DNA from: Gemmatimonadota bacterium
GTDB taxonomy: Bacteria > Latescibacterota > UBA2968 > UBA8231
Direction of reading: 5' to 3'
DNA length: 30,653 bases
Assembly (NCBI GenBank): GCA_038153405.1
Contig: JAYOYH010000001.1
Span: 1,493 to 32,145, forward strand
Each line of letters begins with the position of its first letter. Positions within the stretch are counted from its first letter, which is position 1. Position numbers and translations under genes: made by a program. This document shows, one piece after another, positions 2-28,473 of the stretch. The notes beneath the pieces are model-generated. The model saw nothing but the letters and a program-made list of their open reading frames with translations. It did no database searches and was not told the DNA's origin.

Positions 2-1942
2 GCGCAGCGCGACGCGCGCATTGTCGTTTACTCGCGCAGCAGCACTGGTGCTCTCGTTGATCAACCTGCAGATAATCCGCCCGGCATAGCCGTGGTTGGT
101 CAGCTGCTGCTGCGGCCTGGAGCGGTGCTCGAGGATGCGTTGGGTGGATTAGCTGGCGTGGGTGGACGCGCGATTCCGCTGGCGTCCTTTGCCCTCGAGG
201 CGCGCGGCGAAGCGGTTGCACCACAGCGCGCGCAGTTGCGCATCGAGACGGTTGGTGGTGCCGCAGGGGCCCTGAAGTCTCTCGAGGTGCACATTGACGT
301 CGATGCCGACGGCGCCGTCGACCGCGGCGAATCTTCTGTCGTCGGCTCTGCCGTTTCACTCGATGTGCAGGGGCTGGTCGATGTGGCCCTGTCTGCGCCG
401 GCACTGACCAGCGGTCGCACAGTGCACTATCTGATAGTGGGCGAGTTTTCTGCGGCGCTGGCCCCAGCCGATCAGGTGCGGGTTGTGGTCGAGGGCCTGC
501 AGGGGGGTGCGGGGCAAGTCAGCGGGCTGCCGGCGTGGGGCAGCGGCGACCCGATCATCGGTCCTCTACACCGGGCCAGCGGCTACGTCGACGTGGTGCA
601 CACTGAGCTGGCGGAGCGCCAGGCCAACCGGCGTGGGACGATAGCAGTGGGCTTTAATACGGCGTCGCCGCTGAGAACGGGTGACCAAATTATACTGCGC
701 TTTCCGCAGGGATTCGATCTGAGCCAAGCGCGCCTCGATGAGGCCTCGCGCGGGCCGAATAGCGGCCCGTTGGCCAAAGTCAACTGGCTGTCCTCGCGCA
801 GTGCGCTGGTCGTCGAGGTCTTGGCCGACGAGCCGGCTGGAGCCTATGCGCTGGTTCTGGACGATGTAGTTAATCCGCCTGCGGCCACCGGTCTGAGCAT
901 CGACGTGAGCACGCGGCGCGCCGACGGGCGCACCGTAGACGGGGCCGATCTCACGCCCTTTCTCTTCGATGTAGAAGAGGTTGGCCTATCGCTGGCCTGT
1001 CGCGCCGATTTCGACGGCGACGGGCGCGTATACTTTGCCGACCTTTTTCTATTTGGCGACGCCTTTGGTTATACGGCTTCGAACCGCTTTGATTTAGACG
1101 GCGATGGCCGCGTTGATTTCACCGACTTTTTTGCCTTTAGCGAGGTCTTTGCTCAGCCTTGTGATCCGAGTCAGATCGATACAAGCCCACGCGATGAAGC
1201 GCTGCCGCTGAACGTGGTCGAAGCCCTGCCCGGCGGTGTTGATATGCACTTTGCACTGGTGCGCGCCGGTTCGTTTTCCATGGGGTCGCCCGCTGCCGAA
1301 GTTGGGCGGCTTGGCAACGAGGGGCCACAGCGCAAGATCACGCTAACAAGCGACTTCTACCTGGGCCAATACGAGGTGACGCAGGCGCAGTGGCGCGCTG
1401 TAATGGGGACTGCACCTTGGGCGGGCCAGCCGGCCGTGTTGGAAGACGGTCGCCACCCGGCCGTCTATATCTCATGGAGCGATGCGCAGGCCTTTGTGCG
1501 CGTTCTCAACGCAGCGGCTGGCGATTCGCTCTACCGCTTGCCCAGCGAAGCCGAGTGGGAGTATGCCGCCCGCGCCGGCACCGGCACGCGCTGGTCGTTC
1601 GGCGACGTTGAATCCATGTTGGCCGACTACGCGTGGACGCGCACCGTGCCGCCGGTAGTCAGCGAGTTAATAACGCATGCTGTGGGTTCAAAGCGCCCCA
1701 ACCCCTGGGATCTCTACGACGTGCACGGCAGCGCCAGCGAATGGGTGCAAGACCACTATGCTGCGTATCCGGCCGTCGACCAAATCGATCCTCAGGGTCC
1801 GAGAACGGGTAGCGATCGCGTGCTGCGCGGAGGGGGGGCGTTGCTCAGCGCCGAAATGACGCGTTCGGCCGCGCGCGCTTTCTTTGCGCCCGATGTGCGC
1901 CTAAGCACCTTTGGCCTGCGCATTCTGAAGCGCCTTCCCTAA
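2..1942 (+). CDS. 5'-partial modular protein: Ig-like domains, dockerin-like twin EF-hand (~1001-1150), C-terminal FGE-sulfatase (SUMF1/EgtB/PvdO, C-type lectin fold) domain (~1240-1935)
   Basis: The frame is open from base 2 (AQRDARIVVYSRSSTGAL...), so the start at 92 is probably not the real start. Twin Ca-loop motifs ADFDGDGRVYFADLFLFGDAFG and FDLDGDGRVDFTDFFAF. FGE-family motifs GSFSMGS, EGPQRKI, YEVTQAQW, YRLPSEAEWEYAARAG, PNPWDLYDVHG, RVLRGG. Confidence 0.88.
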   Translation, partial: AQRDARIVVYSRSSTGALVDQPADNPPGIAVVGQLLLRPGAVLEDALGGLAGVGGRAIPLASFALEARGEAVAPQRAQLRIETVGGAAGALKSLEVHIDVDADGAVDRGESSVVGSAVSLDVQGLVDVALSAPALTSGRTVHYLIVGEFSAALAPADQVRVVVEGLQGGAGQVSGLPAWGSGDPIIGPLHRASGYVDVVHTELAERQANRRGTIAVGFNTASPLRTGDQIILRFPQGFDLSQARLDEASRGPNSGPLAKVNWLSSRSALVVEVLADEPAGAYALVLDDVVNPPAATGLSIDVSTRRADGRTVDGADLTPFLFDVEEVGLSLACRADFDGDGRVYFADLFLFGDAFGYTASNRFDLDGDGRVDFTDFFAFSEVFAQPCDPSQIDTSPRDEALPLNVVEALPGGVDMHFALVRAGSFSMGSPAAEVGRLGNEGPQRKITLTSDFYLGQYEVTQAQWRAVMGTAPWAGQPAVLEDGRHPAVYISWSDAQAFVRVLNAAAGDSLYRLPSEAEWEYAARAGTGTRWSFGDVESMLADYAWTRTVPPVVSELITHAVGSKRPNPWDLYDVHGSASEWVQDHYAAYPAVDQIDPQGPRTGSDRVLRGGGALLSAEMTRSAARAFFAPDVRLSTFGLRILKRLP

Positions 1943-1945
1943 GCT

Positions 1946-6595: not shown

Positions 6596-6702
6596 AAGGG
6601 CGCAGATTTTTTCCTAATGTAAGCGAAAGTGGTAGTTAAAGTAAATGCCGCTATGCGCGATATACTAAATGAGGCAATGTTGTCTTATATGTCGGCTAAA
6701 AG
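6596..6702. promoter_or_regulatory. AT-rich divergent promoter region
   Basis: A 107-bp AT-rich gap lies between divergent genes in otherwise GC-rich DNA. TATACT, a -10-like hexamer, is at 6661-6666 on the + strand. No convincing -35 element. Confidence 0.55.
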
Positions 6703-9700
6703 TTGAAAAACATGAATAGATCTTTCCTTTTATTGCCCCTGATCGCCGCGCTGCTATTTTCGTTGCAGGACGTTGCTGCACAGTCAGTTGCGCTGTCTCC
6801 GCAGAGCCTTGCGCGAGTGCCTAAAGGGGCCTCGACGAGCAATCCCTACTGGCAGCGCTTAGCCATTGTGCTGACGCGCAATCCGTCGGCGGGCAATACG
6901 ATCTCGATCAGCCTGCCCGCCGATATTTCAATTGCCGATTTGGACGGGGACGGCAGCGTCGAGGACGAAATCGCCCTCGACGACTCGTCGGCGACGGGGA
7001 CCGGCTACACCTCTGTTGCCGGCAGCACGTCCAGCCGGATTCTGCTGACTAGCGGCACGGGCGGCACGGTGGGCAAGGTCTATGTGCACTACCCCATTAT
7101 AACCCCGGCCCAGCCCGTGCTGCCAAACGCCATCTACGGGCAGATTGCCTTTTCCAATCCCAACGAACAGTCCATTCCGGCTGGCGGTCTGGTCCTCGAA
7201 CTCGTCGAGCCCCGCCAGTTGCGTCTGGCCACCTTTTCCCGGCTCTTTGTCGAGAGCGCGGCCGATACGGCGACCAACGCTCAGGGCGATGCCTATCCAG
7301 AGAAGGCGAGTCCGGCTTTTTCTATACCGCTGCCGGATTTGCTGAGCGATCGCCGCGGCCATCTGACGAGCAATGCCATCGCCCGTGCCGGCATCGCCTT
7401 TGCCGACGGCAACGACGGCAACGACACGCGCTATCACTTCTGGCTTTCGCTGCGCGATACGCTGGATCGCGTCGACACTACAGTAGCCGTGCGCGCCACG
7501 AATCGCCTGACGCGGTCCTTTGTCCAGGGGAGCGAGGGCGATTCGCTAGCCGTAGCCTTTGACGCGACGTCTCTGCTCGACACGACGACGTATTACGTGT
7601 ATATGACATCGGACCTAACGGGCCATTTTCCGCTGATGCGGAGCCGTGGCATTGCGGTGCGCCACAAGCCGGTAGTGCTCGGCGTTGGATCGTTTCTCAG
7701 CGGCGACGCCGATTTTATCGACTCGGGACGCCTGCTCAGTTTGGACAAGGGCAGCGCCGGACCGGTCGACAGCACGCGCGCACAGGTGGCGATTCCCTTT
7801 CAGGTCATAGACTACGACGACAGTGCGTCGGTAAAGCTCTTCTACGCGACGGCAGATACGCTCGATACGACGTTTGTGCAGACGACCGGCACGGTGCCCA
7901 ATCGCGTGATTAGCGGTCTGAAGAACGCCGCTTTCGTCGATAGTTCTACGGCGCTATTTGAGGGGCGCGACGCCGAGCTCAACTGGAAAATCGCACGCAA
8001 TGATTCGGTTTTTGTCGCGCGCGGAAACTACTATGTATATGCAGTCATAAGCGACGGCAAGTCGCTGGGCATTCGCCGCAGCACCCACACGTATAACGTG
8101 CGCCACTCGCCCCTATTGATACTGGACAGTCGGGAAAATCGCACGGTTGAAACGGGGGGGAGCAAGGCCGAGCGCTACTACGCCATCACTTGGAACGGCG
8201 ACAACGGTATCGGCGGCGATGTCGCGCGCGGTGACAGCGCGCTGATCGCCCTCTATTACAGCGATAGTAGCGGCTTTGCCGTGCCGAGCGGAGCGGCCGA
8301 ACTGGAGGCCGCTGCCGCTGACTCGACCCGCGATACGCACCGGATCGTATCCGGCCTACAGGAAAAGCCGGACGGTCGCGCCGACAACCAGTACGTGTGG
8401 GATTTATGGCGCTATAAAAATCCCGACGGCGGCGGCGTGCCTAAAGAAGGGGTCGACTACGCGCTCTACGGCATTGTGCAAAACGACTCGACGCGGCGGG
8501 TTGTGCGCTGGAACGACGCCGGCGGCACGGCGCGCAAATTGCGCTTTATCCACCGTCCACATCTGCGCGTCCTCTCTCCGCTGCACCTACTCGAGGTGAA
8601 TGGGCGGAGCAATTTTGAGGTGGTATGGGAGGCGATAGACGTCGATGGGGCGGCCCAGCTCTGGGTGGTGCTGACCTCGGCGGCGGCGGCCAGTGCCTTA
8701 GGCGATTCCACCCATTATGCCGCGCTGGTTGGAGATGGCGCAAGCGATTGGGTGGCCAATTCCGTCGACGGTAGCATGGCTGCAGCCACGGCGCTGAGCG
8801 AAGATTCGACCAGTGCGCTATCCGTTCGTCCCGCGCGCATGACGCGTGCGCTGGATGGGAGTGCGCAGCCGCTGACCAATGGCGACTACTACGCCTACGT
8901 GCTCATTGCCGAATCGGCGTCGGCTGCACCGCCCGACTCGGCGCTGGCGCGGCGGGCCAGCGGGCGCGTGCGCATCAGCGGGCTGGGACCGGCCGGTGCA
9001 GCGGGGCTCGATACGCCGGACGTAGAATTCGTACCGGCCGAACTGACGATGAGTGCGCCCATCGATACGGCGCGCATCGAAGTGCGGCCGCACAGCGGCG
9101 GGGCCCAGGTCGATCTGCTGAGCTTTTTTGCCAGCGTCGATACGACGTTCTTTACCGTGGTCGATCAAGATGCCAGCCTGCCCGGCATCCAGCCGTTTAA
9201 GCTCAACCCCCAACTGAGTGGCATCGTGCTGCGCGATACGCTGTTGGTCGGCGTCGACAGTCTCAATGCGGGCAAGTACCTGCTCGATCTGGTCTATTAC
9301 GAGCAGCAGGGCAACCGCCGCTTTGACGGTGAGCTATCGCTTGCCAGCATTCAATTGGTGTGCCGCGATACGACGGGCGCTTCTACCGTTAGCATTGACC
9401 ACCTAGGCAATCGCCAATCGGCCTTTTTTCGCGACGGGTCTATGGTCGCTTTGCTGCCGCCTGAGACGGCGATGCGCATTCGGATCTTGCCGCGGGGTTC
9501 GATTCGCGGCCGAGTGGCGCTGCAGGGGCGCCCCAATCCGGCTGGGATAGCCACGCTGATGCTGCGCGATCGCAATAGCTTTGCGCCCATCGCCGATTCG
9601 CTCTTTGTGGCGACCAACGATCTGGATCGCGGCAAAGACGGCATACAGGACTCGCTGGCCAGCGACGGCAGCTTTGATCTGTTGAAAGTGCCCAGCGGCG

Positions 9701-10788
9701 AATACCAGCTGGCCGTCCACGTCGATGGCTATTTGGACGGTCAGTATCCGCTGCTGCGCGTCGATCCGGGCACGGAGTTAAACGATATCAATCCAACGCG
9801 GCGGGCCAACGGGATTGACGACCCCGGCTATCTCGTCGCGGGCGATATTACGGGCTATGTCGATACCAATGGGGTATCGATCCCCGACAACGAGATCGAT
9901 CAGCTCGACGTCGACTTCGTCGTAGCCTACTTCGGACAGAAAGTCGTGGTCGCCAGCGCGGGTGCAGGTGCGGGTGCGGGTGCAGCTGCACCTGCGACAC
10001 CGCTGCATCCGGGTCACCTGGCCGATATCGACGGCGATAGTCTGGTGTGGATTGCCGATCTCAACGTCGTTGCCGCCAATTTCAACCAGCAGGGGGTCGC
10101 GCCCGTCTATAAAGTGGCCGTTCCGTTGGTCACTCCTGCGCCGTGGCACACTGTCGGTCAGGAGCGCGATGGTCTGTGGCACGTCGACGTCGTGGCCGAC
10201 GGTCTCGTCGATGCGCGCGCCTTGGCCTTCCGCCTGTTCTTTGACGAGTCGGTGTGGCGGGTTGAGGAGGTGGACGTGCGCGCCTTTGCCGGCCGCCCCG
10301 CGATTGCGGCTCGGAAAATGGGTCGCGGTGAGCTGGCTATGGGCATTGCCCTGAGCGGCTATCAACGCGGAGAGACGGGTTCCAGTCCGGTGGCGCGGAT
10401 TGCCCTGCGCCGCATAGGGGAAGGACCGGCTGCCGTCCAACTGCGCGATACCGAGTGGGTCGATGGGGCGCTGGTGCGCTACCAGCCGCTGGCCGCTCGG
10501 GTGGTGCCGGCGGCCTTTGCCCTATTGCCGAATTATCCCAACCCCTTTAACCCTGAAACGCAGCTGCGCTTTACGCTGCCGGCGCCCGGGCGCGTAACGC
10601 TGGAGATCTACGATGGGCTGGGACAGCGCGTGCGCACCTTGATCGCCGAGCAGCGGCCGGCCGGTTTTTACACGGTGGCCTGGGATGGGCGCGACCAGGC
10701 CGGTCGCGCCGTTGCTTCGGGCGCCTACTTGGCCCACCTGCGCAGCGGAGAATACCGCGCCGTGCGCAAGATGCTGCTGCTGCGCTAA
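6703..10788 (+). CDS. Family A secreted protein (1361 aa): signal peptide, novel N-terminal and repeat domains, cohesin-like, carboxypeptidase-regulatory-like, dockerin-like, second cohesin-like, FlgD-Ig/T9SS type-A sorting-like C-terminus
   Basis: TTG start at 6703 or ATG at 6712; signal peptide ending DVAA|Q. Cohesin-like region ~9020-9490. GSIRGRVALQGR..GSFDLLKVPSGEYQLAVHVDGYL. Dockerin-like LVAGDITG..DNEIDQLD..FG / ADIDGDSLVWIADLNVVAANF. C-terminal LLPNYPNPFNPET..WDGRDQAGRAVASGAY..KMLLLR. Confidence 0.9.
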   Translation: MKNMNRSFLLLPLIAALLFSLQDVAAQSVALSPQSLARVPKGASTSNPYWQRLAIVLTRNPSAGNTISISLPADISIADLDGDGSVEDEIALDDSSATGTGYTSVAGSTSSRILLTSGTGGTVGKVYVHYPIITPAQPVLPNAIYGQIAFSNPNEQSIPAGGLVLELVEPRQLRLATFSRLFVESAADTATNAQGDAYPEKASPAFSIPLPDLLSDRRGHLTSNAIARAGIAFADGNDGNDTRYHFWLSLRDTLDRVDTTVAVRATNRLTRSFVQGSEGDSLAVAFDATSLLDTTTYYVYMTSDLTGHFPLMRSRGIAVRHKPVVLGVGSFLSGDADFIDSGRLLSLDKGSAGPVDSTRAQVAIPFQVIDYDDSASVKLFYATADTLDTTFVQTTGTVPNRVISGLKNAAFVDSSTALFEGRDAELNWKIARNDSVFVARGNYYVYAVISDGKSLGIRRSTHTYNVRHSPLLILDSRENRTVETGGSKAERYYAITWNGDNGIGGDVARGDSALIALYYSDSSGFAVPSGAAELEAAAADSTRDTHRIVSGLQEKPDGRADNQYVWDLWRYKNPDGGGVPKEGVDYALYGIVQNDSTRRVVRWNDAGGTARKLRFIHRPHLRVLSPLHLLEVNGRSNFEVVWEAIDVDGAAQLWVVLTSAAAASALGDSTHYAALVGDGASDWVANSVDGSMAAATALSEDSTSALSVRPARMTRALDGSAQPLTNGDYYAYVLIAESASAAPPDSALARRASGRVRISGLGPAGAAGLDTPDVEFVPAELTMSAPIDTARIEVRPHSGGAQVDLLSFFASVDTTFFTVVDQDASLPGIQPFKLNPQLSGIVLRDTLLVGVDSLNAGKYLLDLVYYEQQGNRRFDGELSLASIQLVCRDTTGASTVSIDHLGNRQSAFFRDGSMVALLPPETAMRIRILPRGSIRGRVALQGRPNPAGIATLMLRDRNSFAPIADSLFVATNDLDRGKDGIQDSLASDGSFDLLKVPSGEYQLAVHVDGYLDGQYPLLRVDPGTELNDINPTRRANGIDDPGYLVAGDITGYVDTNGVSIPDNEIDQLDVDFVVAYFGQKVVVASAGAGAGAGAAAPATPLHPGHLADIDGDSLVWIADLNVVAANFNQQGVAPVYKVAVPLVTPAPWHTVGQERDGLWHVDVVADGLVDARALAFRLFFDESVWRVEEVDVRAFAGRPAIAARKMGRGELAMGIALSGYQRGETGSSPVARIALRRIGEGPAAVQLRDTEWVDGALVRYQPLAARVVPAAFALLPNYPNPFNPETQLRFTLPAPGRVTLEIYDGLGQRVRTLIAEQRPAGFYTVAWDGRDQAGRAVASGAYLAHLRSGEYRAVRKMLLLR
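9958..9996 (+). repeat. In-frame hexanucleotide microsatellite (GGTGCR)4 with decayed copies, encoding AGAGAGAGAAAPA
   Basis: Read directly: gcg ggtgca ggtgcg ggtgcg ggtgca gctgca cctgcg. Confidence 0.75.
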
Positions 10789-10799
10789 GGCGCTACCCC

Positions 10800-15092: not shown

Positions 15093-15158
15093 GTTGGTGT
15101 GGTGCGACGCGCATGGGGGGGTTAAGGGGCTGTTGCGGTCGTGGAGATGTCGGCCGTC

Positions 15159-15192
15159 GGCGGCCATCCATGGGCGGCGCGCCTGTTTTTTT
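15159..15192 (+). terminator. Candidate intrinsic terminator after the first A-B gene pair
   Basis: GGCGGCC (15159-15165) can pair with GGC(G)CGCC (15176-15183) and is followed by TGTTTTTTT. The stem is imperfect with a 10-nt loop. Confidence 0.4.
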
Positions 15193-15418
15193 GCGCTCTA
15201 TCGGCCGCTGGGCACGCGGGTTGGAACGGGGTTTGCTCATTACTTGGCGTCCTGTATGAGAAGTTGAATGCAAACCGACCCGTGGGGGCAGGGATGTTAG
15301 CAAAACCCTACATATTGCGTTGTTCAGTGGGGCACAATTCCACCAAAAGGCGTTGGCACGGGGAAAAAAATTCTCTGTTGATCGGGCACTTTGTGCCGAG
15401 CCAGGTGTTGTACATACT
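15193..15418 (+). promoter_or_regulatory. Probable promoter/leader of the 15419-30529 operon
   Basis: This is the only long gap in the + strand cluster. It has lower GC, an A7 tract at 15364-15370 and an inverted repeat GGCAC-ttt-GTGCC at 15385-15397. Confidence 0.45.
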
Positions 15419-18400: not shown

Positions 18401-19423
18401 TACATCGAGGGCGTTGCCGCCGATCTAACGCTCCACTCGGGGTTGGTATTGGAAGATATTGTCCCCGCTAGCGTGGGAACTGAAGACATGCCGCGTCTGC
18501 TGGGAGGCGATGTGACGGGATACGTCGAGGAGAGCGGCGTCGGCGTGGCCGATAACGAAGTGACGCTGGCCGACTGGGACTACGTGGCCGCCTTTTTTGG
18601 CACAGAGGTCGACCAGGGTAACGGCAGCGCGCAGGCCGATATTACCGGCGACGGGCGCGTAGATATTGGCGATTTATCGCTGGTAGGCGCCAACTTTATG
18701 CAGCGCGGAGCGCAGCCAGTATACAAAATTCTTCCAAGTGAACAGCGCATCTACATCGACTATATGCGAGATGCTGGAGCCGTGCGTGCCGGCGAAGAAA
18801 TTACGTGGTCGGTGCGTGCGCGCGGTGCCGAAGACGTGCGGGCTTTCGCTCTACAGCTGCACTACGATCAACGCCAATGGGAGTGGGTTGCCGTGCGCGG
18901 TGCCGACGCGTCGCCCGCGCTTTCCGCCCTAGCCGAACGCCCCTACGGCAAGCTGTGGGGACGAGTGGTGATCGGTCGTATGGGCACGTTGATCGGCGGC
19001 GATGGCCGCGTGGCACAGTGGACACTGCGCGCGCGCACCGACGATCCAGCCGAGCCCGTGCTGCGCGCCGATGCGTTTATTGATCGCGCCGACCGGTTCC
19101 TGCCGCTGATGGAGAATGAAGAAGGCAGTAGGGCGAGTCTGCCGCAGGAACTGCGCTTGGAGCAAAATGCCCCCAATCCCTTTAATCCAGAGACGACCAT
19201 CGCCTTTGCCGTGCCGACGTCGAGCCGCGTTACGCTAGAGATTTTCGACGTGCTCGGACAGCGCGTGGTGCGCGTGTGGGATGGGGTGCTGGACGCTGGG
19301 CAGTATGCCATGCGCTGGAACGGGCGCGATACCAGCGGGCGTCCTGCCGCCAGCGGAGTGTACATCTATCGGATCGAGAGCGATCGTCAGGTCCTTTCCA
19401 AACGCATGGTGCTGGTGCGATGA
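15419..19423 (+). CDS. Family A' secreted protein (~1334 aa), full-length paralog of 6703..10788
   Basis: ATG at 15419 gives the signal peptide MMIRMAILLLSSWWGLDTAHA|Q. It shares YWQ, LPDL, RSRGI.V.H.P, PDGRADNQYVWDLW, VVDQD....GIQPF, L.VHVDGY, GD[IV]TGYV and PVYK with 6703..10788. C-terminal LEQNAPNPFNPET..WNGRDTSGRPAASGVY..KRMVLVR. Confidence 0.9.
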   Translation: MMIRMAILLLSSWWGLDTAHAQTVQIVPSELSLVPVAGLGDDRYWQQIEVTLAVDDRASAELLSIELPEAMSLVDDDEDGAYDDEVRVVYRPIGDEQPEVFVAATTTARRIVIGSAQGAAAGGQIYVQFACNNPVAPVELSARYGRIDFADEGETDLLEGPQLSFVTQEDFSALGSMQVVRYAPVLGVEADTSAAPIGQFFPDAAQVLVDNLPDLVFDGPGGSSSDALELGDGDDSNDVEYRFFFSTLGNLTRVNEDTAIEASIAGGDPYIEREGAMRLLRLDISQLSPGLYYLYVTSSQTGSIPLGRSRGIGVLHTPQFTVVGPQEDVTLDSGGLYDAAGMATGKGIQQIALEYELVDLDDAPPVFLFYSTKEVLESSNVSADGIAAGVANATALTPGGLAESAGVFTWDILAEGLIPEGEYYIYAVASDGTGTTMQRSEGIVRVRHSPFLRLDPLNDRAHIGVDTIRTGGVHPQRYITFSWGRSGMDGDKDLDDDAHIALYYSSEPAVEQPGSSGLAVPGGASQMLTALNEGRAELVFGDILEDPDGRADNQYVWDLWSPSRDGISLPQEGAVYYAYGLISDGENRRLAQMNGGYLNDAASQMVFVHSPSILPVQPVAPIAVGPGLYGRTTWEDVDLDDDARIRVLLSGEDLGPHPLYGEVSAVRSYVVNSVDGRAAVLVDTLYDLSEDSPQDHFDFGIEHIARGISTDAALEDGEYTLYLAIADGNSFADAQCWRAPGAIQVQGLGEAAAPTVPIRLLPERFSMGNGGALQVFEVRVDAGTEVDLVQASFVVDGDGFAVVDQDGEAEGIQPFAVSNGFSPAKLVSNRVSGDEGGPQILTLEYFEPTARAIAGLGPDKTLATFQLRSLELEGPTAIELVVEDEGGDLSRLQRDGFSVVELVAAPLSQGELVPGRAVLRGLLQLEGRTDMTSQATVALRTRGDYRPFGDVLLAETNDVDIDAAGVQVDVAADGRFELSEVPAGRWNLHVHVDGYIEGVAADLTLHSGLVLEDIVPASVGTEDMPRLLGGDVTGYVEESGVGVADNEVTLADWDYVAAFFGTEVDQGNGSAQADITGDGRVDIGDLSLVGANFMQRGAQPVYKILPSEQRIYIDYMRDAGAVRAGEEITWSVRARGAEDVRAFALQLHYDQRQWEWVAVRGADASPALSALAERPYGKLWGRVVIGRMGTLIGGDGRVAQWTLRARTDDPAEPVLRADAFIDRADRFLPLMENEEGSRASLPQELRLEQNAPNPFNPETTIAFAVPTSSRVTLEIFDVLGQRVVRVWDGVLDAGQYAMRWNGRDTSGRPAASGVYIYRIESDRQVLSKRMVLVR

Positions 19424-22400
19424 GCGGGTTTATATTGCGCATACTGACCCTATTTATTGGGGTTCTGCTCGGAGCAGTTACGTCCGCCGATGCTGCCGCT
19501 CGTGCCGAAGTGCGGCGTGCCGATGGGGCGAATGCCTTCAGTGCCGAACTGGGTTCTGTGGTCGATATGGAAGTATTTATCGACTCCGGCGATGAAGCGT
19601 TGACGGGCTATAGTCTTTTTGTTTCCTACGACGCCGAGGTGTTTTCTCTGGTGCCGGCCGAGGTGGCTGCCGACGGCGCTGCCGTGCCATTTAGCAGCGG
19701 CACTATGCTGCGCGGTATACCGCTGGTCAACAGCGTCGAGGAAATCGATGGCAGAGTCTACTTGAGCTACGTTGAGGCCGCCGGTGGGTCAGCGCGACTC
19801 AGCGCTGACAGCAGCGGTGTTGTCTTGCGATTTAAACTCGAAGTCGCGCGGCGATCGGTGGAAGGCATCGAGTCCATTCGTTTAGAGGAACTCGGGCACG
19901 ACCGCATTTCGCACTACGTGACGGCGGATGAGCCGGGCATTGAGAAGCGCTTTGCCCAGCCGCTGGGAGCGGCTCAGGTGCGGATCACGGGATTCCGCAT
20001 TTGGCCGATCCCGGATGTAACCGTTGTCGAGGGCCAGTCGCAGGTGGTCTTCGATTTGGATCAATTCGTCGACACGCTGTCGACCGAGGTCCTGTGGACT
20101 CATTCGCGCCTCAGTGAAGTGCCCACCGCCATCGATCCCGACACGCGGGAAGTGACGATGAGTCCGCGCGACGGCTTTGTCGGTAGGCGCGCAATGATTT
20201 TTACGGCCTTTGATATAGACGAGGGCCTGACCGCTGCCGATACGGTGCGCATAACGGTTCTTTCCACTCCGCTCATAACCGATTTCCCGGACACGATTCG
20301 CTTTGCCGAGGACAGTTTGTATCTGGATCTCGACTTTGACGCCTTTGCCGAAGATCTCGACCACGACGTCGCTGAACTGACGTGGCAGGCGGCGCCGACC
20401 GTTCACATGGAAATAGATGTCAATGCCGATAGTCACGTCGCGCTATTTAGTCCTATGGCCGATTTCTTTGGCATCGAGGAAGTGACGTTTATCGTCGCCG
20501 ATCCAACGGGGTTGGCCGATACGGTAGTAACCGTCGTCGAGGTGTTACCGGTTAACGATCCACCCGAGGTCGAATCGCTGCCGCCGGTCTACCCGGTCGT
20601 CGGCAGGCCCTCGCTGGTCATTCCCATCGAAGACATACTGAGCGATCGCGACGATGCCGTTTCGGTGCTACAGGTATTTCTCGAAGTCGAGGGCGGCGTG
20701 CGGGCCGAATTGGCCGACGGCAACTTGTTGGTGGGCAGCTCACAGGCCGGCCGCGGTATCGTCCATATAACGGCGCAGGATACGTCCGGCGCGAGTGCAT
20801 CCACGCGCTTGGTAGTCATTGGCCTGGAGGAGGGCACATCGGTTGGGCCAGAGCTGGATCGCCTGGCGGAAGTGCGTTTTCGCGGCGGGCAGTCGGTAGC
20901 GCTCGATTTAAAAGAGCGCGTGAAGGATGACAGTCCAGCCGAATTGCTCATATGGTCGGTGCAGGCCGATAGCGGGTTGGTCGCGTCTATACCGGGCGGT
21001 GTGCTGCAAATCAGCGGCGAAAGTGGTTTTGCCGGTTCTGCTCATCTCGTCGTTGAGGTTACCGACCCCGAGGGCAATAGCGACGCGCAGCGCCTGCTGG
21101 CCAGCGTGTTGCGCAGCGAAGACGATCTGGGACCGCGCATTGCTGCGGTGGGCAAGATCGGTCTGCGTGAGGACGAAGTCGTGCGCTATGCGCTCGATGA
21201 GTGGGTGGCCGATCCAGACCATGCCGATGACGCGATCAACTGGGAAATTTATCCTACGGCTGGCGTAGAAGCGACGCTGGATGTGGTATCGCGCACGCTG
21301 AGCGTGTGGGCCACCGACGATTTTGCCAGTCCCGCCGAACTCGGTTTGCGCGCCATCGATCCACAGGGCAATAGCCACGAGGCGACTGTGCCCGTGCTGC
21401 TGGCCCGATCGGGAGAGGCGCCGCAGTTGGCCGCGCTGCCCGAGGTGAGCTTGGACAGCGCCAATGCAGCCGTACAGATCGATTTAGATGACTATGCCTA
21501 CGACGATGTCGACCGCGAGAGCGAGCTAGTGTGGCAGGTTGTAGCCGAGCCTGGCGTCCGGGCCTCATTCGATCCGGTGACGCATGACCTCGTGCTGGAG
21601 CGCGACGAAAGCGCGGGGAATATGGGCGGAGCGACACAGGTGCTGTTGCGCGCTATGGACACCAATGGCCAGGAGCGCACCGCGCTGATAACAGTGGGAC
21701 TGCCGCCGCTCTTTTCGCTGCTGGCACTGCCCGATGTAGAGCTATTCGTCGGTCGCGTTGATTCGACCGTTGTGCTGCAGGACTATGCCGTGGGTGGGGG
21801 GGGGAGTGCGCCGCCGTCGTTGGTGTGGAGCGTCGGTCCGGCCGAGCACATCTCCGCCGAAGTCGACGTGCGCACCACGCGCCTCTTTCTTCTATTGACC
21901 AACGCTGGTTTTACCGGAACCGAGGTGCTGCAACTGAGCGCCGTTGATGCTACGGGACGCCGGCAGGTAGTGCCGCTTCAGGTCGTGGTCAACGGTCCTG
22001 GTTTGGCACCGCAGGTGCGCTCTTTGCCGCGCATTGAAGTGGCCGAGGGCGAGGTGGATGCTTCGCTCGATTTGGACGACTACGTCGTTGATGACGATCC
22101 CGACGATGCGCTGGTGTGGAGCGTGAGTGGTCAACAGGTCCTCGCCGTTTCTATCGATCCGGCCACGCGGGTGGTCACGCTCGATGCAACGGAGGCAACG
22201 CCCGCTATTGAGAAACTGCAGTTTGTGGTCATCGATCCATCGGGCAATACGGAACTGGCTGTTATGGAAGTCGTCGTCGTGCGCGGCGGCGCGGCACCTG
22301 TTATTGGAGCCCTGCCTCAGATGTTGCTGACGGCTGGCGATGCAGAGCGGCAAATCGATCTGAGCGTCTTTGTTCAAGATGCCGATACGCCGTCAGAAGA

Positions 22401-23505
22401 CCTGAGGTGGGATGTGCAGGCTCCGGCCGGCATCTCTGCGCGTTTGGAAGGCAGTCGTCTCTTTGTCGCCATTCCCCCAGGCCAGCGGGGCCAGCGCAGT
22501 ATTGCGCTGACGGTGACCGATTCCCAGGGCAATCTGGCGGTGGCGACTATGCAGGTGATTATCGAATTGGATGGGCGGCCTCCCGAGTTTAGGGTCGAGG
22601 TGGGGCGCGATCCGGTATTTAGTGAGTGGGTCGAAATCATAGCCGTGTCTGACGAAATGTTGCTCGACGTGCCGATCATCGCTGTCGAAGGCGATACGCT
22701 GGATGTCAAGGTGCGCGATGACGGTAAATACCAGGCCTCGTTTTACCACGGTCCCGATGAGGAAGATCTCTTTGTCGAAGCGGTGGTTCGCGGCGTTGAT
22801 CGCGCTGGGAACGAGGGGGTGCGCCGGCAGGAAGTCGCACTGGATTGGTTTGATAAAAAGGGGGGAAACGTGCGCAGTCCGGACCTACAGCTCCTCCTCA
22901 ATGTGAGCGATGCGGCTGCGCAACCCGGACAGATGGCCATCATCTACAGGTTGGGCGCTGCCGAGCAGCCGCCCAACAGCGGGGGCTATCCCGTATACTC
23001 AATCGACATGCTGGATGACCGCGCGCTGGCTATGCCGGTGACGATCAACTTTCTCACCTTGGGCGATGCACCGCAGGGAGTCTTGCGCTGGGATGAGACT
23101 ACGGATACGTGGAATGAGTTGGCTACCAGCGTCGACCCGCAAACCGGCTGGCTGGCGGTGACGGTCGACGAGTTGGGCCTGTTTAGAACAGGGCGCGTGC
23201 GCCAGGAAAATATACGCCAAATGGCTTTGCTCAACGGCTATCCCAATCCCTTTGTCGCCGGTTTGGGAGAAATGGCGACGATTGAATACAACATTGTCTC
23301 GCCAGGTCCGGTGCGCATGATGCTGTATAATGCGCTGGGACAGCCCGTGCGCGTTTTGATCGACGAATTTCAAGAGGTTGGCGTGTGGAGTGTCGGATGG
23401 AACGGGCGCGACGCCGCAGGTTCGATCTCAGGTAGCGGCGTCTACTACATCGAGCTCATCGAAGGGGGGCGGCGCCACCGCCGCTCGCTGGTGCTCTTGC
23501 GCTGA
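19420..23505 (+). CDS. Family B' secreted protein (~1361 aa), paralog of 10800..15092: cohesin-like domain, tandem cadherin/Big-like repeats, sorting-like C-terminus
   Basis: ATGA overlap with the upstream stop at 19420-19423 gives the signal peptide MSGFILRILTLFIGVLLGAVTSADA. Cohesin-like MEVFIDSGDEALTGYSLFVSYD. About 9 repeats of the LDDY..DD...L.W type. C-terminal GYPNPF..WNGRDAAGSISGSGVYY..LVLLR. Confidence 0.9.
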   Translation: MSGFILRILTLFIGVLLGAVTSADAAARAEVRRADGANAFSAELGSVVDMEVFIDSGDEALTGYSLFVSYDAEVFSLVPAEVAADGAAVPFSSGTMLRGIPLVNSVEEIDGRVYLSYVEAAGGSARLSADSSGVVLRFKLEVARRSVEGIESIRLEELGHDRISHYVTADEPGIEKRFAQPLGAAQVRITGFRIWPIPDVTVVEGQSQVVFDLDQFVDTLSTEVLWTHSRLSEVPTAIDPDTREVTMSPRDGFVGRRAMIFTAFDIDEGLTAADTVRITVLSTPLITDFPDTIRFAEDSLYLDLDFDAFAEDLDHDVAELTWQAAPTVHMEIDVNADSHVALFSPMADFFGIEEVTFIVADPTGLADTVVTVVEVLPVNDPPEVESLPPVYPVVGRPSLVIPIEDILSDRDDAVSVLQVFLEVEGGVRAELADGNLLVGSSQAGRGIVHITAQDTSGASASTRLVVIGLEEGTSVGPELDRLAEVRFRGGQSVALDLKERVKDDSPAELLIWSVQADSGLVASIPGGVLQISGESGFAGSAHLVVEVTDPEGNSDAQRLLASVLRSEDDLGPRIAAVGKIGLREDEVVRYALDEWVADPDHADDAINWEIYPTAGVEATLDVVSRTLSVWATDDFASPAELGLRAIDPQGNSHEATVPVLLARSGEAPQLAALPEVSLDSANAAVQIDLDDYAYDDVDRESELVWQVVAEPGVRASFDPVTHDLVLERDESAGNMGGATQVLLRAMDTNGQERTALITVGLPPLFSLLALPDVELFVGRVDSTVVLQDYAVGGGGSAPPSLVWSVGPAEHISAEVDVRTTRLFLLLTNAGFTGTEVLQLSAVDATGRRQVVPLQVVVNGPGLAPQVRSLPRIEVAEGEVDASLDLDDYVVDDDPDDALVWSVSGQQVLAVSIDPATRVVTLDATEATPAIEKLQFVVIDPSGNTELAVMEVVVVRGGAAPVIGALPQMLLTAGDAERQIDLSVFVQDADTPSEDLRWDVQAPAGISARLEGSRLFVAIPPGQRGQRSIALTVTDSQGNLAVATMQVIIELDGRPPEFRVEVGRDPVFSEWVEIIAVSDEMLLDVPIIAVEGDTLDVKVRDDGKYQASFYHGPDEEDLFVEAVVRGVDRAGNEGVRRQEVALDWFDKKGGNVRSPDLQLLLNVSDAAAQPGQMAIIYRLGAAEQPPNSGGYPVYSIDMLDDRALAMPVTINFLTLGDAPQGVLRWDETTDTWNELATSVDPQTGWLAVTVDELGLFRTGRVRQENIRQMALLNGYPNPFVAGLGEMATIEYNIVSPGPVRMMLYNALGQPVRVLIDEFQEVGVWSVGWNGRDAAGSISGSGVYYIELIEGGRRHRRSLVLLR

Positions 23506-23517
23506 GAGCGACAAGGG

Positions 23518-26500
23518 ATGCAAATAATGAAGCACCTAAAGAAAACATACTACGCGCTATTATGCGCGCTCAGTTGCCTGCTGGCAGCCACGGGCGCTGT
23601 GGCCGGCAGCAACGAGTGGACGCGCGAAGGCGCGGGGCTTAACGCCACTGTCAACGTGCTGCAGTTCCACGCCGGCCGTACGGATACGCTCTTTGCCGGG
23701 GCAGTAGACGGCTTTTACCGCAGCGGCGACGGCGGTCAGACGTGGTTGCCCAGCGGAGCGCTGCTCGTCGATCGCAGCGTGCTGAGTCTCGCAGTGGATC
23801 CCGAGCGCCCCACCCAACTCTACGCTGGAACCCATGTCGGTCTATTTACCAGCAGCGACGGCGGACGCCAGTGGCGCTCGGTATCGTCTGTTACCAGCGG
23901 CGTGCTGTCCCTGAGCCCTGGCCAGGGTGGACGCGTCTACGCAGGCACTTTTGGCGAGGGAATTTATCTGAGCGAGAATCGCGGCGAAACGTGGCGTGCG
24001 GCCGGTGGCGAACTAGCTTCTGAAATCGTCTTTGCCCTAGCTGCTCATCCATTTGAGAGCAATACGATTTACGCGGGCACGGGGCGCGGACTCTACGTCA
24101 GCCGCAATGGTGGGGCCAGTTGGCAGGCCGTGGCCGACTTGGCCGGGCAGAGCGTGCGCAGCATCGTCGTCGGCGATGAGCGCACGTTGTCTGGACTGAT
24201 TGTCGTCGGCGCGTTTGGCGGAGGCGTCTTTATCAGCCAAGATAGCGGAGACAGCTGGCGCGTGGCCAATAGTGGTTTAAGCGACCGCAACGTGCGCATG
24301 GTTGCAATAGATCTCGATGTGCCGGGTCTCTACTACGCCGCGACGGCGGCAGCAGGCTTTTTTCGCACGCGGGACGGCGGCGGGAGTTGGGCGGCCATCA
24401 ACGAGGGACTTGGCGATTTGGCCACGCGTTGGATTGGCGTAGTTCCAGGTGTGGAGGGACGTCTGCTGGGTCTGACGCGCAATAGTGGAATATACGCGCT
24501 GCAATTTGAGCCAGAAGCGCGCGCGCGCTTTAGCGCAAGCCAGCTCAATTTTGGTCCGGTCGCCGTCGGTTCCATTGCGTCGCTTGCAGTGGATATAAGC
24601 AACGATGGTCAGGCGTCACTCGTGGTCTCTAATATCAATGTAGACCGCGAAAGTGCCTTTGGCGTAAGTCCGGCTTCACTGACAGTTAAAGCGGGGCAGA
24701 CCGAGCGGGTGCAGGTGCGCTTTCAGCCGCAGCAGCGAGGGGCGGTGTCGACCAATATGATGGTGCGTAGCAACGACCCATTTGCGGGCAGCACCAGCAT
24801 TTCTCTGCTCGGTACGGGAGTGCAGGCACAGCTGAAGGCGCAGCCGAGTGCGGTGCGCTTTGGTGCGGTGCGCGTCGGAGGCTATGTCGATACCACCGTG
24901 GCTATCAGCAATGAGGGCAATGCTGTGCTAGAACTGCGCAATGCCTTTTTTGAAGACAGTGCGTTTCGCTTGTTGAACGCTTTGCCAGATGCGCTCGCAC
25001 CGGGGCAAAAAGCCCTGCTCCGCGTGCGTTTTGTGCCGCTGGTGGCGCGCGGGATTTCTTCGAATCTGGTCATTGTAGCTGGCGACGGCATGGATAACAA
25101 GGTGCCCTTTGACGGCATCGGCACGGCGCCCGATATCGGCCTTTCGAGCATGGACGTGGACTTTGGCACGGTGGATATCGCCACGGCGCGCGTGCAGACC
25201 TTAGATATATCCAACAGCGGCAATGCGCCGCTAACAATTCGCGCACTATCGCTGCAAGGTGAGTCCTTTAGCATCGACGGCAATGAGCCGAAAGTCATCG
25301 CTCCCGGTGAAATCTACGCGCTTAGCCTGCGCTTCTTTCCCATCGAAGCGGGGGCGCGGCGCGGCGTGCTGACCGTGGAAAGCGATGCGCCGGGCCGCCA
25401 GTCGAGCGTGCAGGTGCATCTGGTCGGGGCCGGCGGCGCACTGGCACTGCGCGCGCAGGAGCCGTTGGCTGCTGGCATTGGTTCGGCCGACTTACTCGTC
25501 GTCGACCTGAATGCCGACGGCGCTGCCGACATGGTATTGGCCGACAGCGCGGGGGGTAAGATCCACGTGCACATCAATGACGGTGCGGGTGCATTCACCG
25601 CTATGGCGTCGTATCCTTCGGACATGGCGTCCTATGGAGCATGGGACCGCCCCGCGGCGATGGCGGTGGCACCTATCTTCGGTTCGGCTCCAGATTTGGT
25701 GGTGGCCGACCCCGTAGCGCGCTCCCTTTCTCTACTGGCCAACGATGGTCAGGGAGGATTTGACCAGCAGCGCACGGACGTATATATCGGTCATGTGCTA
25801 GCCGATGTGCTGGCCGTCGACCTCGATGCAGACGGCGACGTCGACATTGCTACGGCCAATGCAGATGACGCTTCTGTGACGATATTGTACAACAATGGAC
25901 GCGGCAATTTTAACGCGCGCGCAGCTATTGATGTCGGATCTGGCCCAGCGGCGCTGGCCGCCGGACATCTCAATGCCGACGACCACCGCGACCTCGTTGT
26001 GGCCAACAGTGCGGCTGGGACGATATCGGTTGTTTTAGCCGATCTCCAGGGAGGCTTTTTAACGCACCAAGACTACGTCGTTGGGCAAGGGCCCATTAGC
26101 GTGCACGTCGTCGATTTCGATGCTGACGGCGACAACGATGTGCTGGCTGGCAGTCGCGGTTCGCGCGATGTCGCCGTGCTGCTCAACGACGGCAGCGGCC
26201 GGCTGACGCTATTGCAGCGCATTAACGTCGACATACCTCTGGTCGACATGGCCCTGTCCGATCTGACGCGCGATATATTCAGCGATTTGGTCGTCGCTGG
26301 TGGCAGCGGAGACTACATTGCCTTTTTGGAAAACGACGGAGGTACTGGGTTGGTCGTGCGCGACATCATTACCTCGCAGGTGCCCGTGCGCCGGGTGGCG
26401 ATCGCCGACCTGAATGGCGATGGGGCAAACGATATTGCGGCCCTGTCTTCCAGCGATTCACAGGTGCAGGTCTTTCTCAACGAAGATGCCCGCCTCGGCG

Positions 26501-28473
26501 ACCCGCCGCGCCCGCCCAGCGAGGTAGAGGCGCGCGACTTGGGCCGCGATCTGGGCCGCCAGGTAGAAGTCGTTTGGCGGGCGCCCGAACTAGATGAACA
26601 GCTGGGTCGCACGACGCGCTATACCGTATTTCGCTCAGCTACGCGCGGCGGAGACTACGCGGCCATTGATACGCTGCTGGCCGGCAGTAGGCGCTTTATC
26701 GATCCGGCTGCCACGTTAGCCGACACGTTCTATTACTACATCGTCGCCGGCAATGCCGGCGTTGAATCGGTTCCTTCTGATACCGTATGGGCCGTGTCGC
26801 AGCCGTCGCCTTTTTTTCAGCTCGAAGTGGTCGATGAAGCCCGTTTCAGCATTGGCGATACGCTGGTTGTACGCGCCTTTATTGTACCGACTGCCCACGT
26901 GCTAACGGGTGTCTCCATTTATATGAGCTACGATGCAGAGGGTCTCGATCTCGTCGATGAACGGACAGGCGAAGCCCTGGCAGAAGGCGGTGAACTGACT
27001 GACGTTCAGCCCTTCCGCGTAGCCAGCGCTTTTGAGGGGCGCGTGATCGAAAATGCCATGCACGGCGGCGAAGCGGGCCGAGTCAATCTCTCTTTGGTGC
27101 AGAGTATGGGCTTGCCGCTGATCGATGCCGGGGTCGATCCAGTGCTACTGGGCGAAGTGCGCTTTGTGACTAACGGCGATGTCACCGCGCAGATTCGCAT
27201 TGACGAGGAACCACAGCTCAACCGCATCAGCGCGGTCGTCGACGATGAGGGTCAGTGGATTCCGCCCTTCATTCCCGAACAGCCGATTGAGATTGTTGCG
27301 CGCGACTATACCGTGCGCGGACAGGTCGCGCTGCAGGCTCGAGAGGTCGACAATGCCAATGTGCAGGTTTCCTTGCATTTCTACAACGCGGAAGGTCAAC
27401 TGCTGGTATCGCCGATCAACGACGAAAATCGATTTAAAGAGGGCATACAGTACACGCTTGACGAGCGCGGTGCCTTTGCGCTGGCGCAGATTCCGCCGGG
27501 TGTTTACAACCTGCTCGTAAAAGCGGATACGCACCTGCGCGGACACGTGGTCGATGGACCCATTACCATCGGCGGCGAACTGGTTGAAGATCCGCTGCAA
27601 TTTGAGTGGGCGACCGAGGAAATCAGCGTGCCGTTGCCCGCTGGCGATGCCAACGATGACAATCGAATTAACTTAGCTGACTTTGGTCAATTGGTTGACT
27701 ACTTCAATAGCAATACAACCGTTGAGCCTGCGGCACGGCGCGCCGATTTTAACGGCGATGGGCAAGTCGGACTCGATGATTTTATGTTGCTGGCCGAAAA
27801 TTTTGGCCGCATCGGCATGGAATTGGCTGAAGAAGCGGTAGCTAAAGAGGCCCCGTCTTCCGCGCCCGTTCTACTGGATGCCAACGGCATGCTGCGCCTG
27901 CAGAATCCCGAAGACATAACAGCGCTTACGCTGCTCTTTCTCGACGTCGATGCCGCTTCCCTTTCTCTGCGGGGGACGGCGTGGGAAGAGCGCCGATACC
28001 ATATGCATACGTGGGATGAGGGGGGGGCGACGCGGCTAGTCATAGCTCTTGCCGAATCGCGCACCGCCCTGCGCAGCGCGGAAGACCTGATGCTGATCCC
28101 GGCTGGTGCCACTCCCATCGGAGGTCAGATCCTGCGCGCCGACGGCTCGCTAATCGATCTCACTATGGAAGCGGCCGCCGTGCGGCCACAGCACAGCGCG
28201 CTGTGGCCCAATTATCCAAACCCGTTTAACCCAGAGACCACCATTCCCTTCGCGATTGGTATCGGCGATGGTCGTCGCGTCGAGTTATCCATATACAACG
28301 CGCTGGGCCAAAACATACGCACCATCTTTGATGGGGCGTTGGCGCCGGGCATGTATAGGATGATCTGGGATGGTCGCGATGCCGGCGGTTGGGCGGTATC
28401 TTCGGGAGCCTACTTTTATCGCTTACAGACAGGCGATAAGATGCAGGTTCGGGGCTTGCTGTTGCTGCGCTGA
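23518..28473 (+). CDS. Secreted mosaic protein C (1651 aa): Asp-box/BNR beta-propeller, 3 ASH/choice-of-anchor-D Ig domains, FG-GAP/VCBS repeats, FN3-like, cohesin-like, carboxypeptidase-regulatory-like, dockerin-like, T9SS sorting-like C-terminus
   Basis: Signal peptide (alternative ATG at 23527). Six Asp-boxes (YRSGDGGQTW, FTSSDGGRQW, YLSENRGETW, YVSRNGGASW, FISQDSGDSW, FRTRDGGGSW). Three FG.V.[VI]...ISN.G...L units. Repeats DLNADGAAD, DLDADGDVD, DFDADGDND, DLNGDGAND. Dockerin GDANDDNRINLADFGQLVDYF / ADFNGDGQVGLDDFMLLAENFG. C-terminal PNYPNPFNPET..LLLLR. Confidence 0.92.
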   Translation: MQIMKHLKKTYYALLCALSCLLAATGAVAGSNEWTREGAGLNATVNVLQFHAGRTDTLFAGAVDGFYRSGDGGQTWLPSGALLVDRSVLSLAVDPERPTQLYAGTHVGLFTSSDGGRQWRSVSSVTSGVLSLSPGQGGRVYAGTFGEGIYLSENRGETWRAAGGELASEIVFALAAHPFESNTIYAGTGRGLYVSRNGGASWQAVADLAGQSVRSIVVGDERTLSGLIVVGAFGGGVFISQDSGDSWRVANSGLSDRNVRMVAIDLDVPGLYYAATAAAGFFRTRDGGGSWAAINEGLGDLATRWIGVVPGVEGRLLGLTRNSGIYALQFEPEARARFSASQLNFGPVAVGSIASLAVDISNDGQASLVVSNINVDRESAFGVSPASLTVKAGQTERVQVRFQPQQRGAVSTNMMVRSNDPFAGSTSISLLGTGVQAQLKAQPSAVRFGAVRVGGYVDTTVAISNEGNAVLELRNAFFEDSAFRLLNALPDALAPGQKALLRVRFVPLVARGISSNLVIVAGDGMDNKVPFDGIGTAPDIGLSSMDVDFGTVDIATARVQTLDISNSGNAPLTIRALSLQGESFSIDGNEPKVIAPGEIYALSLRFFPIEAGARRGVLTVESDAPGRQSSVQVHLVGAGGALALRAQEPLAAGIGSADLLVVDLNADGAADMVLADSAGGKIHVHINDGAGAFTAMASYPSDMASYGAWDRPAAMAVAPIFGSAPDLVVADPVARSLSLLANDGQGGFDQQRTDVYIGHVLADVLAVDLDADGDVDIATANADDASVTILYNNGRGNFNARAAIDVGSGPAALAAGHLNADDHRDLVVANSAAGTISVVLADLQGGFLTHQDYVVGQGPISVHVVDFDADGDNDVLAGSRGSRDVAVLLNDGSGRLTLLQRINVDIPLVDMALSDLTRDIFSDLVVAGGSGDYIAFLENDGGTGLVVRDIITSQVPVRRVAIADLNGDGANDIAALSSSDSQVQVFLNEDARLGDPPRPPSEVEARDLGRDLGRQVEVVWRAPELDEQLGRTTRYTVFRSATRGGDYAAIDTLLAGSRRFIDPAATLADTFYYYIVAGNAGVESVPSDTVWAVSQPSPFFQLEVVDEARFSIGDTLVVRAFIVPTAHVLTGVSIYMSYDAEGLDLVDERTGEALAEGGELTDVQPFRVASAFEGRVIENAMHGGEAGRVNLSLVQSMGLPLIDAGVDPVLLGEVRFVTNGDVTAQIRIDEEPQLNRISAVVDDEGQWIPPFIPEQPIEIVARDYTVRGQVALQAREVDNANVQVSLHFYNAEGQLLVSPINDENRFKEGIQYTLDERGAFALAQIPPGVYNLLVKADTHLRGHVVDGPITIGGELVEDPLQFEWATEEISVPLPAGDANDDNRINLADFGQLVDYFNSNTTVEPAARRADFNGDGQVGLDDFMLLAENFGRIGMELAEEAVAKEAPSSAPVLLDANGMLRLQNPEDITALTLLFLDVDAASLSLRGTAWEERRYHMHTWDEGGATRLVIALAESRTALRSAEDLMLIPAGATPIGGQILRADGSLIDLTMEAAAVRPQHSALWPNYPNPFNPETTIPFAIGIGDGRRVELSIYNALGQNIRTIFDGALAPGMYRMIWDGRDAGGWAVSSGAYFYRLQTGDKMQVRGLLLLR

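Follow-up and report, generated by a model that had tools for sequence, protein, structure and literature searches.

A predicted cohesin–X-dockerin assembly tied to flagella by gene distribution and promoter motifs in Latescibacterota-like bacteria

To our knowledge, most cohesins and dockerins found outside cellulosomes have no assigned job. The best-described relatives of the modules treated here are clostridial: the Coh9-X-DocII segment of Clostridium thermocellum CipA (3kcp, 4fl4, 2b59), and the type II anchoring systems of SdbA (2bm3) and of Acetivibrio ScaA/ScaB (4u3s, 3l8q), in which one cohesin, on a long linker, belongs to a protein of its own. Outside Clostridia, the available parts of the reports describe genome-predicted cohesin–dockerin surface complexes in Candidatus Stygibacter (Cloacimonadota, PMC8542988), with a scaffoldin whose C-terminal domain is proposed for surface attachment, and in the planctosome (PMC6461901), with an adaptor that has both cohesin and dockerin; complexes outside cellulosomes have also been proposed for ANME archaea (PMC9012536). 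Here we describe a stretch of 30,653 nucleotides from a genome of the Latescibacterota lineage (GenBank GCA_038153405.1), called the window throughout, which holds seven long open reading frames (ORFs): L1, L2 and then, on the plus strand, A, B, A', B' and C.

The C-terminus of the A-type proteins (A, A') and of C has the module order and fold of the CipA segment, a cohesin (Coh1) followed by an X-module and a dockerin (together, the X-dockerin), and B and B' resemble the anchoring proteins in being separate, with one cohesin (the B-type cohesin) and a long linker. Unlike CipA, the system belongs to a diderm host, has type IX secretion system (T9SS) tails, flagellar-type promoters and an extra NagJ-like cohesin (Coh2) after the dockerin, and shows no CBM3, no tandem cohesin array and no dockerin-tagged hydrolases that we could find. 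For the Stygibacter and planctosome systems, in contrast, peptidases or glycoside hydrolases are the proposed cargo, and the parts of their descriptions available mention no flagellar link (PMC8542988, PMC6461901). The tie of a cohesin–dockerin system to flagella is what is new here: in the open-access literature we found no paper that connects the system, in this lineage, with flagella, FliA or T9SS. The accessible text of PMC7424252 credits Farag 2017 with dockerins in Latescibacteria, and PMC4454575 mentions neither cohesin nor dockerin; Farag 2017, Peer 2009 or their supplements may already list these proteins. We tentatively favour, at slightly less than an even chance, a non-enzymatic, T9SS-exported cohesin/X-dockerin assembly that belongs to the flagellar programme and would probably form a coat on the flagellum or at the pole.

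The distribution of the modules follows that of flagella. Among 125 genomes of the class, the B-type cohesin was detected in 49, exactly the same 49 that encode flagellin (one of these cohesin calls, in G033, is borderline at E 1e-9). The X-dockerin was present in 47 and FliA in 44, with both in 43; flagellin is present in all four genomes that have the X-dockerin and no FliA match, in one of them as a fragment only. Across the phylum the X-dockerin was found in 55 of 153 genomes, all of them among the 65 with flagellin and none among the 88 without. In the family (69 genomes at least 80% complete) the head of A occurs in 28 genomes and flagellin in 32, including all 28; L2, found in 24 of the 125 class genomes, is likewise always accompanied by flagellin. 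Four genera are mixed (4/28, 1/2, 3/8 and 1/2), and X-dockerin and flagellin split each of them identically. Two controls ignored this split, PorV (124/125) and a second, phenylalanine-rich (F-rich) class of dockerin (125/125), while PilT, intended as a type IV pilus control, matched in none of the 125 genomes and was uninformative. The thresholds were set by us, 22-29 candidates were scored per genome and the profiles were built from flagellated genomes. Within the source genome, X-dockerin proteins number six and B-type proteins four, always at loci common to both kinds, and A-type and B-type genes adjoin at all three or four of these. The same genome encodes eight flagellins, two giant glycosyltransferase-TPR genes in its flagellar locus and an unusually long FliD (1,220-aa frame, L128:9702-13361, G000:C1), features that suggest a complex glycosylated filament.

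Two classes of predicted promoter precede the genes. A predicted sigma-28 (FliA) promoter for A-B, TAAAG-N16-CGATA, lies at 6637..6664 (+); a second, weaker one for L2 at 6686..6715 (-) has a -35 box that overlaps the A start codon; and a predicted sigma-54 promoter for A'-B'-C at 15222..15237 (+) is alone of its kind in the window, the whole genome having 24 such sites. FliA and RpoN are both encoded in the source genome. For these motifs, which we take to be the sigma-28 and sigma-54 consensus, the flagellin promoters served as control: the sigma-28 motif of A also stands before five of the eight flagellin genes, and two others have sigma-54 sites. An encoded FliA and a conserved motif common to flagellin genes are, at the level of sequence, what membership of a late sigma-28 regulon calls for.

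The two motifs separate the paralogs consistently. Within 400 bases upstream, the sigma-28 motif was found for 13/13 A orthologs versus 0/19 A' orthologs, and the sigma-54 motif for 15/19 A' orthologs (two of the misses had <200 bases) versus 0/13 A; a relaxed sigma-28 motif faces L2 in 13/16. The orthologs are related, so that these counts are not independent; background frequencies in random windows were 0.16% (sigma-28), 0.1% (sigma-54) and 1.2% (relaxed sigma-28). With a matrix made from flagellin promoters only, the L2 site ranked 252 and the site of a further paralog, A5, ranked 19 among 9.7 million positions. Strict sigma-28 sites also precede A-type genes at four loci in other families. 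In another class, which has a single A-B pair, a canonical TAAAGTTT-N11-CCGATA stands before A at 4/6 loci, the remaining two ending inside A, and a sigma-54 site precedes B at 3/6; this division of one A-B pair between the two sigma factors suggests an ordered assembly.

An inverted repeat before A was considered as an RNA hairpin or riboswitch. This reading was dropped because both arms are the -10 boxes of the facing sigma-28 motifs; Rfam gave no match for the repeat. A divergent flagellin pair in the source genome (L129:12328-14977, G000:C1) has overlapping, opposed sigma-28 motifs in the same layout as the L2/A spacer. The relative G021 has no A-B at this locus (L055:13419-13521); the double sigma-28 element still lies there between L2 and A', and the start codon of A is altered. 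From three RNA runs (shares 0.06-0.16), the contigs that cover A, A', B' and L2 were short and in part nearly identical; such assembled contigs carry no level, strand or start information, and DNA may be present in them.

The cohesin and dockerin modules are real, as judged from ortholog profiles and predicted structures; single-sequence Pfam support is thin (Dockerin_1 exceeded its cut-off in C only, and Pfam Cohesin matched no window protein). An earlier note on this DNA, made from the letters alone, had listed five dockerin-like and five cohesin-like modules; all were located where it had placed them, and it had overlooked the X-module, the division of the dockerins into two classes, the promoters and the flagellar link. 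The X-dockerin profile, made from orthologs of A, A' and C, hits type II X-dockerins (4u3s_B, E 4.5e-14; 2b59_B, 2.6e-13) across both parts, the X-module being continuous with a dockerin that has two calcium loops. Seven calcium-loop residues are retained in 75-78 of 78 X-dockerins; recognition residues are conserved within, and particular to, each ortholog group, and the calcium ligands hardly vary. For the N-terminal domain of B and B', type II cohesins are the first matches (best 3l8q, E 4e-6; range 4e-6 to 0.03), and an atlas cohesin cluster scores 0.95; with an Ig stalk behind this domain, B and B' are indeed single cohesins on long stalks, as the note had proposed. The A-type cohesin is homologous to the B-type (98.8%), and its profile matches solved cohesins weakly (E 0.046).

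For the modelled C-terminus of A' (pLDDT 89), the top Foldseek match was 3kcp, the Coh-X-DocII of CipA. Taken separately, the A' Coh1 model aligned with a cohesin at Z 14.3 (root mean square deviation (rmsd) 2.5 over 136 residues) and resembles type I cohesins (Z 14.3) more closely than those of type II (Z 12.1), and the A' X-dockerin model reached Z 13.7 (rmsd 3.5 over 149 residues). The weaker modules suspected after the dockerins of A and A' proved to be cohesins of a NagJ-like class, Coh2: the best profile matches are the Clostridium perfringens NagJ cohesin (2jh2, 2ozn; E 6e-7) and an Archaeoglobus cohesin (2xdh), and the A' model gave Z 12.1. C also carries a degenerate Coh2. NagJ is an enzyme, whereas here Coh2 sits between the dockerin and the export tail of a non-catalytic protein. 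The head of A' (pLDDT 88) is modelled as a chain of beta-sandwiches with Ig/FN3-level matches only (best Z 9.4), and its residues 1-293 were barely covered by a wide structure search; the A head had no atlas match at or above 0.9, and the B stalk none among solved structures. A-type and B-type cohesins fall into two clades of old separation (99/97 support; 42 rows, 6 per group), with predicted binding faces that are unlike each other. In the A-type cohesins, conservation of the predicted binding face versus the back face was 0.61 versus 0.49 for A and 0.27 versus 0.36 for A', the faces having been assigned by strand alternation, not coordinates.

All five proteins from A to C had been credited with T9SS-like tails: those of A, A' and C exceed the TIGR04183 cut-off, whereas B (19.4) and B' (20.7) stay below its value of 23. 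In structure, the model of the A' tail resembles the tail of PorU (Z 11.8); L1 and L2 have no such tail. A check for T9SS core genes, which the note had advised, returned SprA (606 bits, cut-off 200), PorU (665, cut-off 420) and a PorV family member (257, cut-off 90) in the source genome; from the GldKLMN motor, GldM gave no match there, the control genomes being silent as well. By our own profile, 94 ORFs of the genome end in a T9SS tail. The D-S/T-hydrophobic motif, the O-glycosylation sequon of Bacteroidota, occurs 24 times in A versus 6.2 expected and is enriched in A and L2 orthologs, so that both may be glycoproteins. Genome-wide, these motifs are enriched 1.34-fold in tail-bearing proteins versus 0.97 in others, and about twofold in SprA, while E- and N-led controls are not enriched; O-glycosylation of the Bacteroidota type may thus occur in this phylum. 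The idea that they mark all sigma-28 genes was rejected: A (2.94) and L2 (2.28) stand out against A' (1.06), but B (1.59) and B' (1.42) do not differ in this way.

The system is not a cellulosome. No catalytic glycoside hydrolase or peptidase family was found by Pfam in the 16 dockerin ORFs scanned, of 17 in the genome, which, together with the beta-sandwich head of A', fits the earlier note, in which no glycoside hydrolase or protease domain was recognised. Dockerin-tagged carbohydrate-active enzymes are thus missing from the scanned set, with the C propeller as an uncertain case, and so is a tandem cohesin array with a cellulose-binding module: the seven window proteins carry at most two cohesins per chain, not in tandem, and no carbohydrate-binding module family. 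C may have a carbohydrate-active role, as its BNR propeller resembles GH74-type and other BNR propellers (best E 7.5e-17) and could bind or cut glycan. The idea of a non-cellulosomal, T9SS-type and apparently enzyme-free cohesin–dockerin system is supported, although as first put forward it left out the coupling to the flagellar programme. The C-type lectin fold once seen in L1 is instead an FGE-sulfatase-family domain (Pfam). The second dockerin class, F-rich and lacking an X-module, comprises L1, L2 and nine other ORFs; the suggestion that L1 and L2 are clients is weakened because this dockerin persists in 76 genomes that have no B-type cohesin match. It probably has another partner, perhaps the NagJ-like cohesin, and may be a separate docking or sorting system. 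Many genomes lacking flagella contain 50 or more copies of it.

How might the modules work together? In the favoured assembly, sigma-54 would turn on A'-B'-C early, with A-B and L2 following late under sigma-28, at the same time as most flagellins. The five proteins with tails would leave the cell through SprA and PorV, and PorU would remove the tails and may anchor the proteins. Much as CipA is captured by the anchoring scaffoldins of Clostridia, the X-dockerin of an A-type protein would then be bound, with calcium, by the cohesin that tips the stalk of its B neighbour; we infer binding between B-type cohesins and X-dockerins because they come and go together and their genes adjoin. Cohesins left free on A, A' and C would accept more A-type chains, or F-rich dockerin proteins of which L2 is an example, with the Ig and propeller heads presented outward. 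Finally, the structure would serve the flagellum itself, as suggested by the strict co-occurrence, whether as a coat on the filament or sheath or as a polar adhesive patch.

An early sigma-54 and a late sigma-28 tier are described for the Vibrio flagellar hierarchy in the available part of PMC6504787, which offers further likenesses in several flagellins and a large adhesin tied to the hierarchy. A flagellar sheath is a possible place of action; the portions of the literature consulted describe none for this lineage, and searches with Pfam and NCBIfam only gave no sequence link to sheath proteins. Another kind of T9SS-exported surface structure is the Tannerella-type S-layer, a paracrystalline lattice over the cell. 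A more specific proposal, which we consider doubtful, is a polymeric coat: cohesin–dockerin subunits, controlled by the flagellar cascade from sigma-54 to sigma-28, would be delivered by T9SS, B stalks would prime the polymer, A subunits would chain head to tail through cohesin and X-dockerin, and the product would wrap the filament or sheath. The other class speaks for such a polymer, with one X-dockerin match in each of 8 genomes and two related cohesins at 6 loci.

Several points weigh against a flagellar assembly. Ten of the 65 flagellin genomes of the phylum have no X-dockerin match; the counted genomes are kin, not independent, and the counts are raw and made without a species tree; and lineages without flagella may share a lifestyle. 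On this contig some 130 kb separate the cluster from the closest flagellar genes, and no flagellar protein matched the cohesin or dockerin profiles, so that no physical link was identified. The sigma-28 pattern was picked after the conserved element had been seen, and the flagellin-only matrix places the A site just 273rd of 9.7 million positions; the site before A is moderate by matrix alone and convincing through its conservation. As for the polymer step, the old separation of A-type and B-type cohesins and their unlike predicted binding faces argue against chaining.

Three other explanations have to be weighed. The proteins could form an adhesin coat of the motile stage, held by cohesin–dockerin bonds over the swimming-cell surface and merely co-regulated with flagella, like FrhA of Vibrio cholerae, a described flagellar-regulated adhesin (PMC6504787, available part). 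FrhA differs in being an RTX adhesin under indirect control through CdgD and without a cohesin–dockerin assembly. Such a coat draws on the same promoter and co-occurrence data, would account for propeller heads and Ig stalks, which are typical of adhesins, and suits genes unlinked to flagellar operons in the source genome. We nevertheless hold it to be somewhat unlikely, since the B-type cohesin is kept in all 49 flagellin genomes of the class, which in our judgement is tighter than expected of an optional adhesin, and since the use of both a sigma-28 and a sigma-54 motif within a single A-B pair of the other class suggests ordered assembly.

The flagellin tie and the sigma-28 motif would be left unexplained by a cellulosome-like display scaffold in which A-type scaffoldins dock dockerin-tagged enzymes, as proposed for the Cloacimonadota and planctosome systems; the lack of catalytic hydrolase families in the 16 scanned dockerin proteins and the limit of two cohesins per chain also count against it. 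It does draw on a Coh-X-Doc and anchoring-cohesin layout that copies CipA and SdbA, on the abundance of F-rich dockerins in relatives, on the GH74-like propeller of C and on the glucosaminidase and deacetylase genes downstream of C, and even so we consider it improbable. Joint loss without any assembly is a further explanation, and an improbable one: the modules would be calcium-stiffened spacers in adhesins of a free-living stage, lost with the flagella when a lineage became sessile or host-bound. The kinship of the genomes, the uncontrolled habitat in the co-occurrence counts and a predicted binding face of the A-type cohesin that is not clearly more conserved than the back face all suit it. 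It is at odds with dockerin recognition residues that are paralog-specific and strongly conserved, with an A-B gene pairing constant across two classes, with the conserved promoter motifs, and with the retention in flagella-less genomes of PorV and F-rich dockerin proteins, some >1,500 aa.

The layout of the locus is as follows; gene starts were judged by eye from signal-peptide-like N-termini, with no predictor, and the likely true starts are A 6712, A' about 15422, B' 19420 and C 23518-23527. A (6712..10788, +) encodes a signal peptide, about five Ig/FN3-like domains, the A-type cohesin Coh1 (9016..9492, +), a type II X-Doc-like X-module plus dockerin (9493..10098, +), the NagJ-like Coh2 (10123..10494, +) and a T9SS tail. 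B (10800..15092, +) has its B-type cohesin at 10866-11345, then an Ig stalk and a T9SS-like tail; the stalk includes an acidic low-complexity linker (window 12460-12840) whose length differs among orthologs. The A paralog A' (15422..19423, +) comprises Coh1 (17684-18163), X-dockerin (18164-18712), Coh2 (18737-19117) and tail (19145-19420), and its stop overlaps the start of the B paralog B' (ATGA; 19420..23505, +), which has a B-type cohesin (19498-19986), a Big_9/cadherin-like stalk and a T9SS-like tail. C (23518..28473, +) consists of a BNR propeller, three ASH/HYDIN Ig domains, an FG-GAP propeller and, also on the plus strand, a C-terminal part with a B-type-clade cohesin (26809-27303), an X-dockerin (27304-27819), the degenerate Coh2 and a T9SS tail; its last 590 residues are common to A and A'. 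L2 (1946..6595, -), divergent from A, combines an NHL propeller, a Big_9 stalk and a C-terminal F-rich dockerin (1955-2140). L1 (2..1942, +) is 5' incomplete, being interrupted by the window edge, an N gap and the contig end, and carries an F-rich dockerin (995-1165) and the FGE-sulfatase-family domain; its full-length form adjoins L2 in some relatives only, and it is probably a neighbour, not part of the assembly.

Named homologs of the window proteins are mostly from Latescibacterota. Comparison with relatives, another check the note had advised, showed that the order of L2 divergent from A-B-A'-B'-C recurs across genera, some genomes having only A'-B'-C with L2. Seventeen bases after C lie a glucosaminidase (Bax/FlgJ-like) gene (28491-29435, +) and a polysaccharide deacetylase gene (29432-30529, +), a pair also found after C in the relative G003 and not in G021. 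As FlgJ of the source genome shows a rod-binding domain only, one may speculate that the glucosaminidase might supply the missing muramidase. At a second locus of the source genome (L080, G000:C9), B3 is divergent from A3-A4, with a sigma-54 site; at a third (L081-L082; G000:C61, C46), A5 has a strong sigma-28 site and is broken at the contig end, the locus apparently continuing into B4 across the break. In other families (L062, L063, L111, L114, L117, L118), a C-like gene is flanked by short B-type-cohesin proteins of 420-460 aa and about 760 aa without a T9SS tail, mostly with an F-rich dockerin as well and often beside GMP synthase; these look like adaptor scaffoldins.

T9SS and flagella are machines usually studied in different phyla, and the present system connects T9SS export with flagellar biogenesis. 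The whole module set is tied to one organelle by gene distribution and two promoter classes, and its function is therefore testable with expressed modules, even without a culture. The paralog-specific dockerins could be new orthogonal protein couplers. The available part of a review on flagellar sheaths states that virtually nothing is known of sheath biogenesis proteins (PMC7175336), and the proteins described here are candidates for a part in the building of flagellar coats or sheaths. If true, the polymeric coat would add a new type of accessory structure to the flagellum and give a cohesin–dockerin polymer a structural job.

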